A stretch of DNA of 43,657 bases from NCBI RefSeq assembly GCF_003334315.1, contig NZ_QOWR01000041.1, one strand, 5' to 3'. Of this stretch, positions 3,404 through 8,877 are shown piece by piece. Position 1 is the stretch's first letter; each line of letters begins with the position of its first letter. Source of the stretch: Escherichia coli (lineage in GTDB: Bacteria; Pseudomonadota; Gammaproteobacteria; Enterobacterales; Enterobacteriaceae). The translations under genes and the position numbers were made by a program. Below the pieces are notes generated by a model. It saw only the letters and a list, made by a program, of their open reading frames with translations, was not told where the DNA came from and did not search any database.

Positions 3404-4153
3404 TTACACATCCCGATAACTCCCCAACCGATAACCACGCTGAGCGATAGCACCTTTCAACGACGCTGATGTCAACACATCCAGCTCCGTTAAGCGTGGG
3501 AAACAGTAAGCACTCTGACGGATAGTATTATCGATAAACGCCGGATGACACATCACCTCCAGCGAACGATCACCCCGATGGCCTGCGTCATCCAGCACTT
3601 GCAGGAACAGCGACTCACTGATCTCTTCACCGTAGAATGCACTGCTGAATCCCTGGGTAGTGCGCAGGTTGACCGGCAAATCAAACGCCATCTGACGATC
3701 CGCCCGCAACGCAATGCCCTGCTCTGCCGCAAACCTGGCAACAATCGGGAAAATCTGCGGGAACATATGCACATGATGATGGCTATCAAGATGCGTAGGT
3801 TTGCGTCCAAATAGCTCAATGAAACGCAAATACTGACTGACAAGCTCCTGAGTAATTTCTTCCAGCGGTAAAGCATCTTCTTCTGCCAACTGCCAGATCC
3901 ATTTTCCCAGCACACCATCGCGGGTTAACCCCGGCATAGCTGTCAGTGGCTTACCCATAGTAAGGACAAAGTGCATCCCTATGGCCAGACTCGGTTCATC
4001 ACGACTCAACTGCACCGCATGGTCAATAGCCTGCCCATTCACCAGCGCCGTCGTCGACGTGACAATCCCATTGCGACAGGCCTCGATAATGCCGTAGTTC
4101 TGACCTTTGCTTAAGCCAAAATCATCGGCATTAACAATCAGTAAGCGTTCCAT
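3404..4153 (-). CDS. chbG: Chitooligosaccharide deacetylase ChbG (YdjC family)
   Basis: 249-aa ORF starting [22 protein letters not shown] (YdjC-family signature); position downstream of chbF. Confidence 0.9.
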
Positions 4154-4165
4154 AATCAGCCTCGG

Positions 4166-5518
4166 TTAATGTGCTTTTTTAAGCTCTGCGATGCAGTCGG
4201 CAAAGTTTGGCAGCCATTTCTCGTGCGCCAGAATCATCTCGCGTGCCAGCAGCTCAGCATCGCGATCGGAATGCACCAACGGACTAAGGTTTAGCGCCAG
4301 TAACACATCGTTAAATTCTCCGCTAAGTGCGGCGTTACTGGCAGCAATCTCGAAGCCTTTAATGGTGTGAATCAGCCCCATTACTTTATCATCGAAATGC
4401 GTAATGCGCGGATGTGGCGTCGCGCCATCGCGCCCCAGCTTACAGGTCATTTCTACTGCCCAGTCTGCCGGAATATTATCAATCTGCCCATGATGCGGGA
4501 TATTAACGTAATGTTCTGCTTGCTTGTCGTTGTAGATAGCGTTGATCACTTCGCATGCTGCATCAGAGTAATAAGCCCCACCGCGCTGTTCCAGTTCTTT
4601 CGGCTTAACTTTCAGCTCAGGATTTTTATACAGCTCAAAAAGTTGTTTCTCGACTTTCTGTACTACCTGCGCTCGTGCGCCGCCTTTGTAGTATTCGCCC
4701 ATTTCAATAGCCAGCATCTCTTTCTGCTTGAAGTAATACAGCAGATAAGAACATGGCAGCAGATTCAACGAACGAATTAAGCCCTCACTAAATGGCAGAT
4801 CGAAAATATTTTTTACAGAGGACGCTTTTAACTGCCCTGACGCCACACCATCAAGCAATTCGGCAAAGCGCGACTTGCCATTTACCAGCACATCCTTAAT
4901 GAACACCATATGGTTGAGGCCGAACAAATCGATAGATAAATCATCGCTGTCTTTCAGCATCAGAACATCGCGAATAAACATCTTCATGCCGATCGGAATA
5001 TTACACACGCCGATAAAGCGTTTAAATCCGGTATGACGATAAACGGCTTCAGTGACCATTCCCGCCGGGTTAGTGAAGTTAATCACCCATGCATTCGGAC
5101 AAAGTTCTTCGACATCTTTTACGATGTCAAAAATCACCGGAATGGTACGCAGACCTTTAAACAAACCGCCCGCGCCGTTGGTTTCCTGACCAAGATAACC
5201 ATGACTTAATGGAATACGTTCATCCAGTTCACGCGCCGGTAATTGGCCAACGCGCAGTTGGGTAGTAACGAAATCAGCATCTTTCAATGCTTCGCGGCGA
5301 TCCAGCGTTTTATAAAGCTTCATCGGGACGCCAGCGTTATCAATCATCCGTTGGCAGAGATCGAAAATAATATCCAGTTTCGCTTTACCACCTTCGACAT
5401 CCACCAGCCATAATTCGCTGACCGGCAATTCGTGATAACGCTTAATAAATCCTTCCAGTAACTCCGGGGTATAGCTGCTCCCGCCACCAATAGTGACGAC
5501 TTTTAATTTCTGGCTCAT
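4166..5518 (-). CDS. chbF: 6-phospho-beta-glucosidase (GH4 family)
   Basis: 450-aa ORF starting MSQKLKVVTIGGGSSYTPELLEGF (GH4 NAD-binding N-terminus); operon context. Confidence 0.93.
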   Translation of the reverse strand: MSQKLKVVTIGGGSSYTPELLEGFIKRYHELPVSELWLVDVEGGKAKLDIIFDLCQRMIDNAGVPMKLYKTLDRREALKDADFVTTQLRVGQLPARELDERIPLSHGYLGQETNGAGGLFKGLRTIPVIFDIVKDVEELCPNAWVINFTNPAGMVTEAVYRHTGFKRFIGVCNIPIGMKMFIRDVLMLKDSDDLSIDLFGLNHMVFIKDVLVNGKSRFAELLDGVASGQLKASSVKNIFDLPFSEGLIRSLNLLPCSYLLYYFKQKEMLAIEMGEYYKGGARAQVVQKVEKQLFELYKNPELKVKPKELEQRGGAYYSDAACEVINAIYNDKQAEHYVNIPHHGQIDNIPADWAVEMTCKLGRDGATPHPRITHFDDKVMGLIHTIKGFEIAASNAALSGEFNDVLLALNLSPLVHSDRDAELLAREMILAHEKWLPNFADCIAELKKAH

Positions 5519-5622
5519 AATTTCTCCCTTCAGTACAGAATACTGATATCTGGCATATCTGCCCCCCCGGACATAAATAATCCAGCAACAGGACAGATAT
5601 GTGAATTGTCAGGTATAACGAC

Positions 5623-6465
5623 TTACTGATTAAATTCAGTCAATTTCTTACGATAGCTCTTAGGCGTAAAGGACGTTAATTTCTTAAACGTTTTAATAAA
5701 CAAACTCGGGCTACTATAACCGGCCTCAAACGCAATATCCGTCACTGAATAGTTGGTCATTTCCAGTTGTTTTTTGGCAAAATTAATACGGATTTCATTA
5801 ATAATCTGCATTGGCGTTTTGCCATAATATCGTTGAGTCGCTCGCGTCAAATATTCCTGTGATTTGGCTGACAACGCCACCATATTCTCCAGCGCCGATT
5901 CACTGAACTGCTCTTTATCATGCATCTTTTCTACCGTACTTTTCAGCCACTGCGGTACATCATCAATCACCTGTTCTTCGCGGTAATGACGTAAACGGTT
6001 AATGACATAAAAAGTAACCATCTCAACAAACTCTTCCAGCCCTGTTTCACGGAAATTCAATGAAGAAATCACTGTTTCCACATAGGTGAGAAAAGCGTTA
6101 TTGGTCCGGTATACCTGCGAAGCAACAAAGCAATAAGGCAACAACGGCAGGTAATGCTGCTCAAAAAAGCGTTTACTGATCCCAACGTTCAATATGCGCG
6201 TGGCACCAAACTCATAAAAACTTTGATGGTGCGAACCTAACGGAATAAAAACAAAATCGCCCCGTTCCAGTAACACGCGCTTACCGTTAATCTCCTGGAA
6301 ATAACGCCCGGTTAATACCAGAGTAAATTCATAATAGTCGTGCTGATGCAGTCCGCTGATACTCTCAGTTTTGTTATAGATAAACACATGGAAGTTTTTG
6401 CCATTAAACAACTGCTGTTCTCGGGCAGTGGCAATTTCCGGCGCGTTAATCACTGGCTGCATCAT
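5623..6465 (-). CDS. chbR: AraC-family transcriptional regulator of the chb operon
   Basis: 280-aa ORF; C-terminal AraC-type HTH region (…[30 protein letters not shown]…); operon context. Confidence 0.9.
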
Positions 6466-6472
6466 CGACTCC

Positions 6473-6823: not shown

Positions 6824-6873
6824 ACATCGTTCCTCTCTTTTCTTACCGGCACGATTACCCGTACCGGCATCGA

Positions 6874-8232
6874 TTAAAATTTCAGGGCGTTAGCGATATC
6901 TTCTTCGCTCTCTTCTTTATCAATCGCATTTTGTGCTTTGTTAGCCACCACAACAAAGGGCAGATAAATTAACGTTGCGATGCCAAGGTTGAAGAGTGCG
7001 ACCAGCAATGCGGCGACGCTACCGTTGGTATTAAAGAAGGCTCCCAGACCGGTTGGCATGGTCCACGGTGCAATATTGGTCACCGGAGGAATAATGCCCA
7101 TGTAGTACGCTGCGAGGGTGATTGCCGCCAGAATCGGTTGTACCAGTACAAACGGGATAAACATCACCGGGTTCATGATAATTGGCAGACCAAACAGAAT
7201 CGGTTCGTTAATCTGGAAGATGCCGGACGGCAGCGCCAGTTTTGCCACCTGACGATAATCAGCACAGCGAGAGGCGATAAAGATAGCCAGGATCAGGCCT
7301 AAAGTCGCACCACTGCCCCCAAGGAAAATAAAGGAGTCCAGCATCGGCTTGGCCCAGATATGGAAGGTCTTACCGGCTGCCAGCGCCGCTTCGACGGAAC
7401 CATATTGCTGATAGGTCGCGATATTTTCCAGCGCCCACGGCGTCATTATGCCGTTGTCCAGTGCGGTCAGCGCCAGCGCGCCATGAATACCGAAGAACCA
7501 GAGCAGTGGAACAAAGATCACATAGGCCCAGCCCACCACGCTACCCAACGATGCCAGTGGAGTTGAGATGGTATCCATAATGATCTGATGGAAGTTGGTG
7601 CCCCAGGTATTCAACGCCCAGGCAATAATCCCCATCACGGAAAGAATAATAAAGCCGGGAATTAATGCCGAGAAGGAACGCGATACTGAAGCAGGTACGC
7701 TGTCGGGCAGTTTAATGACCCAATTGCGGCGGACAATAAAGGTAAACATTTCTGCCACCACCAGGCCAATAATAATCCCGGAGATGATATTCGCCCCACC
7801 TAACCAGTTTGCGCCAACCGCATAGGCCTCACCGACACTATATGGGGTGACGGTCATAAATGCTGCAACGGATAACAACCCAGCCGCCAGCGCATCGACT
7901 TTACGCTCTTCTGCCAGCGCCATGCCAATAAAGAACGGTGCCATTAAAGACATTATCCCTAATGTTCCGTTATATACGTTGCCGCCAATACCTTTCAGAC
8001 CATTAAGTGTTTCAATGGTTGAGGCGTCGAGGCGAATACCTAAGGAATAAAAAAACGACCCCTCCCCAAAGCTTAGAAAAACGTTGTTAATTAATACAAA
8101 CATGGCCCCCACAAGGGTTAACGGCATTAAGCGAATAAAGCCATTTTTGATTGCATTAACGTGTGGCTGCTTTCCTATTTTAACTGCAAAAGGGAGGAGT
8201 ACCTTTTCAAGCGATGCAATAACATTACTCAT
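6874..8232 (-). CDS. chbC: PTS chitobiose-specific IIC permease
   Basis: 452-aa hydrophobic multi-pass ORF between chbA and chbB; recognised as EIIC of the lactose/cellobiose family. Confidence 0.93.
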
Positions 8233-8316
8233 AGAAAAATACCCTTAAAAACCGCAATTTAAATATTGCGGTATTGATTTATGAAATAACTCTTTGACGG
8301 GAAAATTTAAAATAAA

Positions 8317-8637
8317 TTAATTTGCTGCGGCTTTTTTAATCGCTGCAACCGCAGCCTTAAGCACGCCTAAACCATCGACTTTGCCATAAAGCAGCGAGTC
8401 AATTACTTCAACCGGTTTGTTGGGTAACAAACGCTGGATTTCGGGCAACATATAAGCAATCTGCGGCCCTAATAACACGACATCGGCATTCTGACCTTTT
8501 TCACCAGCCAGTGTTTCCGGAAATGCTTCAATAATGACCGGAACTTCATATTTTTCTGCCTGTGCGCGCATTTTTGATACCAGTAAAGAGGTAGACATGC
8601 CCGCAGAACAAAACAGATAAATGTGTTTCTTTTCCAT
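8317..8637 (-). CDS. chbB: PTS chitobiose-specific IIB component
   Basis: 106-aa [32 protein letters not shown]… containing the EIIB active-site Cys loop. Confidence 0.92.
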
Positions 8638-8877
8638 AAAACTGCCCTCATCGACGATTATCTGTCAGCCAGACACTCCGCAAGCCTTAACCTGCTTCCA
8701 TGCTCTGGGTAACTTGCGAAACCAACATGACTTTTGTTGTGGCTGAAAGGAGTATACGGTATAGACCTGAGCAATAGTATTTCTTTGACCTTATAAATTG
8801 TCTCTCCTTGACCTGCGGTTATGACCCTCTTCACATTTCGGGCAAATAATTCGCGAAGATAATTAAGAACTCAGACC
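8638..8877 (-). promoter_or_regulatory. chbB upstream control region, with a candidate NagC/ChbR-type operator around 8845-8865
   Basis: 240-bp AT-rich intergenic region upstream of chbB on the minus strand; contains the imperfect palindrome aataattcgcgaagataatt. Sites not mapped precisely. Confidence 0.35.

Follow-up and report, generated by a model that had tools for sequence, protein, structure and literature searches.

An intact chbBCARFG chitobiose operon in Escherichia coli, with a previously mapped distal NagC operator and a single-base substitution near the promoter

The window analyzed here, a 43,657-nucleotide stretch of the Escherichia coli contig NZ_QOWR01000041.1, carries the N,N'-diacetylchitobiose (chb) operon, in which chbB, chbC, chbA, chbR, chbF, and chbG follow one another in the same orientation on the minus strand from position 8637 down to 3404 (Table 1). 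The list of open reading frames (ORFs) contains all six at full length, each exactly as long as its annotated counterpart in E. coli K-12 MG1655, and none of them has an internal stop. As the K-12 reference we used the MG1655 region NC_000913.3 1811000-1826000 (our locus L001), which is related to the window by a fixed offset of +1983. Window positions 391-13000 align to this reference without a gap and differ from it by isolated substitutions only; this collinearity implies that no insertion sequence (IS) element, deletion, or frameshift is present there, and the alignment shows no IS element, indel, or frameshift in the operon itself. The original prediction, made by reading the sequence, had described the operon as intact with six full-length, co-directional genes, a description that is borne out by the K-12 lengths and the gap-free collinearity. 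A match to the 6-kb chb stretch was found in all 5,426 complete E. coli genomes searched, the best of which (e.g., that of strain HS30-1) differ by one base.

At the protein level, ChbR, ChbA, ChbB, and ChbG are 100% identical to their K-12 counterparts, and five of the six proteins (ChbB, ChbC, ChbA, ChbR, and ChbG) pass NCBIfam equivalog cut-offs end to end. For ChbF, no NCBIfam model scored above its cut-off, yet only 2 of its 450 residues differ from K-12 ChbF; the identical gene in HS30-1 is labeled celF in RefSeq. The amino-acid changes in ChbC and ChbF (Table 1) are also present in HS30-1 and in a second commensal strain, cM2a, because the coding sequence of the operon in the window differs from neither strain (the chbR gene of cM2a carries an IS1, see below), and RefSeq holds these ChbC and ChbF protein alleles as WP_024238471.1 and WP_000078757.1. 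In chbR, the four DNA differences from K-12 are all synonymous and the encoded protein equals NP_416249.1, so that the earlier statement that chbR bears no lesion holds. Since ChbR is thus the K-12 wild type, a gain-of-function chbR allele of the kind that activates the operon for induction by cellobiose is absent.

Table 1. Position and description of the chb genes, regulatory elements, and IS1 copies in the window; positions relative to the start refer to the putative transcription start at A8744.
Feature	Position	Strand	Description
chbB	8317-8637	-	Phosphotransferase system (PTS) enzyme IIB for N,N'-diacetylchitobiose, 106 amino acids; identical to K-12; NCBIfam NF007796, 225.9 bits (cut-off 157)
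chbB-chbC intergenic region	8233-8316	-	RNA decoy for the small RNA ChiX; holds CCCGTCAAAGAG at 8301-8290, followed by a stem-loop at 8272-8251
chbC	6874-8232	-	PTS enzyme IIC, 452 amino acids; A41V and R323C relative to K-12; NF007634 equivalog, 967.7 bits (cut-off 760)
chbA	6473-6823	-	PTS enzyme IIA, 116 amino acids; protein identical to K-12; NF007768 equivalog, 240.8 bits (cut-off 148)
chbR	5623-6465	-	AraC-type dual repressor/activator, 280 amino acids; NF007633 equivalog, 585.2 bits (cut-off 264)
chbF	4166-5518	-	Phospho-beta-glucosidase (monoacetylchitobiose-6-phosphate hydrolase), 450 amino acids; P46A and I212V relative to K-12
chbG	3404-4153	-	Chitooligosaccharide deacetylase, 249 amino acids; DNA and protein identical to K-12; NF002559 equivalog, 399.5 bits (cut-off 227)
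Distal NagC operator CTTAATTATCTTCGCGAATTATT	8845-8867 (read 8867-8845)	-	Centre at about -112; exact match to the published 'chbB distal' site
CAP/CRP site core TGTGAAGAGGGTCATA	8820-8835	-	Centre at about -83.5; one mismatch to TGTGA-N6-TCACA; strongly conserved across genera
Predicted ChbR binding region	8773-8814	-	Two 19-bp direct repeats, 8814-8796 and 8791-8773, with a 4-bp gap; 15 of 19 positions identical
Core promoter	8744-8756	-	-10 hexamer TATACT at 8756-8751; putative transcription start A8744
Putative proximal NagC operator CTCCTTTCAGCCACAACAAAAGT	8730-8752	-	Centre at 8741; spans the putative transcription start
Single-base substitution	8736	-	Plus-strand G, chb-strand A to C; located at about +9 of the mRNA, in position 17 of the putative proximal NagC operator
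IS1 copy, 3' part	1-390	+	Its right inverted repeat (361-390) lies 48 bp past the stop of cedA; labeled IS1-like in related genomes
Second IS1 copy, 5' part	43454-43657	+	Same orientation as the first copy; inserted in ydjH; left inverted repeat with one mismatch

Upstream of chbB, the AT-rich palindrome that had been proposed as a candidate NagC-type operator (aataattcgcgaagataatt, a 20-mer on the plus strand at 8845-8864) lies inside the distal NagC operator. The latter is an exact match to the 'chbB distal' operator listed in Table 1 of the FITBAR paper, which was compiled from El Qaidi and Plumbridge 2008 and from J. Plumbridge (PMC3098098). Scored with a NagC matrix that was built from the nine other operators of that table (leave-one-out, hence non-circular), the site is the best match in the whole 43.7-kb window, reaching 16.3 bits against 12.7 for the runner-up. 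For comparison across species, we aligned the 300 bp upstream of chbB from 76 Enterobacteriaceae loci of the genome collection, one Aeromonas locus, the window, and K-12 (79 promoters in total); the distal operator is conserved over this set and identical in the window and K-12. By its sequence, the palindrome is therefore the NagC site that had already been mapped: it had been read correctly, but it is not new. Position 8877, with which the original prediction closed the region, falls just upstream of this operator, at the tail of the osmE terminator, and the chbB-osmE intergenic region extends to 8935.

Besides the distal operator, the conserved blocks in the 79 promoters comprise the core of the CAP site, the first of two ChbR repeats, CCGTATACT with the -10 hexamer, and a CA dinucleotide at the putative start; the CAP core, ChbR repeat 1, the hexamer, and the CA show the strongest conservation. 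The CAP site and the two 19-bp direct repeats stand upstream of a weak -35 element. An automated repeat search did not report these direct repeats, which are seen by direct comparison and which would be the ChbR sites that Plumbridge and Pellegrini reportedly described in 2004. Repeat 1 is highly conserved across genera, and repeat 2 overlaps the -35 position, as expected for an activator of the AraC type. The assignment of the CAP site to the regulation of the operon follows the literature (PMC13267602; PMC12791066). Further downstream, CCGTATACT hardly varies at all, and 79 of 79 aligned promoters have the CA at 8745-8744, from which we infer that A8744 is the transcription start. A simple promoter scan returned no promoter on the chb strand, which is the expected outcome for an activator-dependent promoter with a poor -35 element.

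Neither an indel nor an IS element is present in the promoter region 8638-8935, including the stretch at about 8816-8924. This stretch corresponds roughly to the interval 72-180 bp upstream of the start in which, as Parker and Hall reportedly observed in 1990, activating IS insertions fall. The original prediction that the promoter is free of lesions thus stands as far as insertions and length changes are concerned; it had overlooked five base differences from K-12 in the chbB-osmE intergenic region, at 8736, 8802, 8816, 8875, and 8932, the first of which lies in the putative proximal NagC operator. The alignment with the K-12 promoter that had been suggested as a check accordingly returned an identical distal operator together with these five differing positions. 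The alleles at 8802, 8816, 8875, and 8932 are common to HS30-1 and an O157:H7 strain, and we therefore regard them as ordinary natural alleles. At 8802, which lies in ChbR repeat 1, K-12 MG1655 has A on the chb strand, whereas the base is G in the window, in HS30-1, O157, and CFT073, and in no fewer than 90% of the 79 promoters; judged from this alignment, it is the laboratory reference K-12, and not the window, that carries the outlier allele.

Between 8112 and 8735, the window does not differ from K-12 at any position, and the chbB-chbC spacer within this interval is hence the characterized E. coli decoy sequence. The CCCGTCAAAGAG 12-mer is presumably the part of the spacer that pairs with ChiX. 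Just downstream of it, at 8251-8272, the chb strand contains a hairpin (ACCGCAAT-ATTTAA-ATTGCGGT) whose 8-bp stem is free of mismatches and whose loop has 6 nt. It is followed by TTTT, is again identical to K-12, and looks like a terminator-like or RNA-stabilizing element in the decoy region. The RNA of the spacer has been described as a decoy that titrates the small RNA ChiX (PMC4098024; bioRxiv 10.1101/2021.05.11.443692).

In addition to the distal site, we infer a second, weak, promoter-proximal NagC operator at 8730-8752, the centre of which lies exactly 115 bp from that of the distal operator. Plumbridge and Pellegrini are said to have reported in 2004 two NagC sites 115 bp apart, with the transcription start within the downstream one. 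When we scanned the orthologous promoters with the NagC matrix, each around its own start, the best NagC frame near the start began +4 into the -10 hexamer in 37 of the 77 other species and scored up to 13.8 bits, as exemplified by CTCATTTCAGCCACCTAAAAAAG in Citrobacter and Salmonella; on the same scale, the distal site begins at -111 in most promoters. In E. coli, the matrix scan by itself did not reveal the proximal site, the highest-scoring frames lying at -1 to -6.5 bits; the site becomes visible only via the frame that is shared with other genera. Compared with the Citrobacter/Salmonella group and with E. albertii and E. whittamii, E. coli is one base shorter between the proximal arms, at 8738-8739 (CAGCCAC-AAAAAAA versus CAGCCACCAAAAAAA), which lowers the NagC matrix score of its proximal site relative to these neighbors.

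The substitution at 8736 changes CCACAAAAAAAGTC to CCACAACAAAAGTC on the chb strand and is the only promoter difference between the window and HS30-1, cM2a, and O157 TR01. In both HS30-1 and cM2a, the base at this position is the common A (plus-strand T), unlike in the window. Of 5,414 complete E. coli genomes, not one has the 71-mer around 8736 in the form found in the window, and a search of JGI metagenome contigs gave no exact match to the C allele; the corresponding 71-mer with the A allele is matched exactly in 4,181 genomes. An effect of the change at the RNA level was considered and rejected, as the predicted accessibility of the ribosome-binding site in the fold of the 5' untranslated region (5' UTR) is unchanged (0.324 versus 0.326 for the two alleles).

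Probably, this C either stems from an error in sequencing or assembly or is neutral and of no consequence; in both cases the promoter would be functionally equal to that of the relatives. The change is a single base within a run of seven A's, it recurs in no other genome or metagenome searched, and it leaves both the predicted fold of the 5' UTR and the exposure of the ribosome-binding site as they were. Errors in homopolymers, however, are usually changes in length rather than substitutions, and the other 43 kb show an ordinary divergence from cM2a and no sign of poor assembly.

A less likely explanation, which we consider possible but doubtful, is that 8736 is a functional operator-down mutation that, through loss of the A at operator position 17, loosens the NagC repression loop and brings about a partial derepression of chb. 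Such a mutation would mimic the first step, relief from NagC, of the two-step route to cellobiose use. Position 17 of the operator is an A in all ten NagC operators listed in the FITBAR table (PMC3098098), and the change lowers the matrix score of the proximal frame by 5.4 bits, from -6.5 to -11.8, after which the TT core at positions 6-7 and the AA core at positions 17-18 are no longer present together in any frame. Apart from the invariance of the A-allele 71-mer in the 4,181 genomes and the lack of the C allele in the 5,414, natural promoter variation in the aligned E. coli strains falls elsewhere: in the variant strains sampled (CFT073, Z247, and WWCOL-236), all differences lie outside the 23-bp operator. 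On the other hand, the proximal site is already a poor match to the consensus in E. coli and the strong distal operator is intact, and ChbR without inducer also represses, while activation still needs ChbR and its inducer, so that any effect may be small. Moreover, C is found at the column aligned to 8736 in 22 of the 79 enterobacterial promoters, and with eight substitutions in 43 kb relative to cM2a, one at this place is compatible with neutral drift, its position not being claimed as non-random. To our knowledge, the substitution is not among the described activating alleles. The discovery of a known activating allele had been named beforehand as the result that would speak against a wild-type locus; none was found, ChbR being wild type and the change at 8736 not being such an allele. 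From these considerations, the 8736 change may weaken NagC repression slightly, and modestly at most. It offers a cheap test case for the contribution of the weak proximal site to repression.

We return to the reading of the locus as a standard E. coli chbBCARFG operon in a functional, wild-type state, to which we assign a probability of about 90% on the strength of the sequence comparisons. What we observe directly is that the genes are intact, that the proteins are identical to K-12 in the extent given above, and that each cis element is present and conserved. The earlier description of the locus as wild type applies to ChbR and the reading frames; the promoter is not base-for-base wild type, given the change at 8736. 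No observation contradicts function, but several points narrow our reading. None of nagC, crp, and chiX is in the window, so that the repressibility proposed originally is a prediction that depends on a nagC elsewhere in the genome. Even in K-12, the proximal site of E. coli has a poor score (-6.5 bits, compared with -11.8 bits in the window), and its assignment rests, as this weakness dictates, on spacing, cross-species conservation, and the arrangement that Plumbridge and Pellegrini reportedly described in 2004. Finally, ChbC (R323C and A41V) and ChbF (P46A and I212V) are changed relative to K-12, albeit in a form that other natural isolates share. That these four non-synonymous differences render the operon silently defective despite its intact frames is most improbable, as these protein alleles are found in many natural isolates, the coding sequences of HS30-1 and cM2a are identical at these genes, and the ChbC score, at 967.7 bits, still exceeds its cut-off of 760.

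The mechanism by which such an operon would work is taken from the literature and is fitted here to a deduced transcription start and a deduced position of the proximal operator. The ChbBCA PTS transporter would take up N,N'-diacetylchitobiose, ChbG would deacetylate and ChbF hydrolyze the imported sugar, and ChbR would regulate the system. NagC bound at both operators, together with ChbR lacking its inducer, would keep the promoter off. N-acetylglucosamine-6-phosphate (GlcNAc-6-P) would release NagC, and inducer-bound ChbR and cAMP-CAP would then activate transcription, with the RNA of the chbB-chbC spacer additionally titrating ChiX. With its wild-type ChbR, the source strain should still be able to use chitobiose for growth, but not cellobiose. 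Operon, regulators, and operators alike are already known, having been worked out in K-12 decades ago, and nothing departs from the textbook. For annotation, this means that the locus can be labeled with confidence as functional, and that the 'candidate' operator is to be relabeled as the known distal NagC site.

Two partial IS1 copies in the same orientation bracket the 43 kb from cedA to ydjH, and the collinearity with K-12 starts at 391, directly after the left-hand copy. The original prediction spoke of flanking IS1 activity; partial copies do stand at both ends of the window, but chbG is 3.0 kb away from the one and the chb promoter 34.6 kb away from the other, for which 'flanking' is a loose term. 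The window looks like a complete short-read contig that was broken at IS1 repeats. In the genome, such an IS1 pair would also provide a substrate on which the entire segment, chb included, could be deleted or duplicated. The junction between IS1 and cedA had no single contiguous match in complete E. coli genomes.

Among the relatives, the commensal strain HS30-1 (NZ_CP029492.1) differs from the window by two bases over 392-12600. Besides 8736, the only difference in these 12 kb is a synonymous C/T change in nadE at 10183, where the window agrees with cM2a. The commensal strain cM2a (NZ_CM176588.1) is the closest relative among complete genomes, with 8 substitutions in about 43 kb. Given this small distance to an E. 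coli strain, the idea that the source might be a Shigella was rejected. Neither strain has the IS1 of the window beside cedA, and ydjH is intact in cM2a, where it spans the equivalent of window positions 43000-43947, the place at which the window has its second IS1. In turn, chbR of cM2a is interrupted by an IS1 (6324-7943 of locus L004; 6547-8166 of locus L089) at the equivalent of about window position 5932, so that the gene is annotated as two pseudogene fragments; the window lacks this insertion. As ChbR is needed for activation, this insertion should abolish the induction by chitobiose and not activate the operon. We regard it as improbable, though worth stating, that the C at 8736 is a natural operator-down allele which, in this IS1-rich commensal lineage, raises basal chb expression and shortens either the mutational route to the use of cellobiose or the lag during growth on chitobiose. 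If this were true, the destruction of chbR by IS1 in cM2a would point in the opposite direction and would suggest divergent selection on chb regulation within the clone.

An Rfam scan yielded no match inside the chb operon. It placed two plus-strand matches to ES036 (CssrF small RNA, RF02751) at 3237-3279 and 10383-10425, which score 55.5 and 42.9 bits against a gathering threshold of 37.6 and sit in the katE-chbG and nadE-cho intergenic regions, respectively. The occurrence of two intergenic copies suggests a repeated palindrome of the repetitive extragenic palindromic (REP) type rather than a dedicated small RNA gene.

Compared with known systems, the operon corresponds most closely to chbBCARFG of K-12 MG1655 (formerly celABCDF-ydjC, b1738-b1733), with which it shares gene order, lengths, strand, and neighbors (katE at one end, osmE and nadE at the other end). 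The two loci agree letter for letter in the CAP core, the -10 hexamer, ChbR repeat 2, the distal NagC operator, and the spacer that serves as ChiX decoy; the differences amount to 21 substitutions in window positions 3404-8935, of which four change an amino acid and five are the promoter-region positions described above. In the K-12 system, NagC and inducer-free ChbR repress, inducer-bound ChbR and CAP activate, and cellobiose use requires regulatory mutations (PMC3551598; PMC12791066; PMC13267602; PMC4488073). The chb operon is the normal chitobiose pathway and is silent toward cellobiose only (PMC4488073); the earlier description as cryptic, which was given for cellobiose, does not extend to chitobiose. 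The second point of comparison is provided by the laboratory mutants able to use cellobiose (Cel+), which combine an IS upstream of the promoter or the loss of nagC with amino-acid substitutions in chbR (PMC13267602; PMC4488073). These mutants (Parker and Hall 1990; Kachroo et al. 2007) are altered at the same locus, and an operator change such as the one at 8736 would touch the repression step that they relieve. Unlike them, the window has no IS in the locus and encodes a wild-type ChbR.

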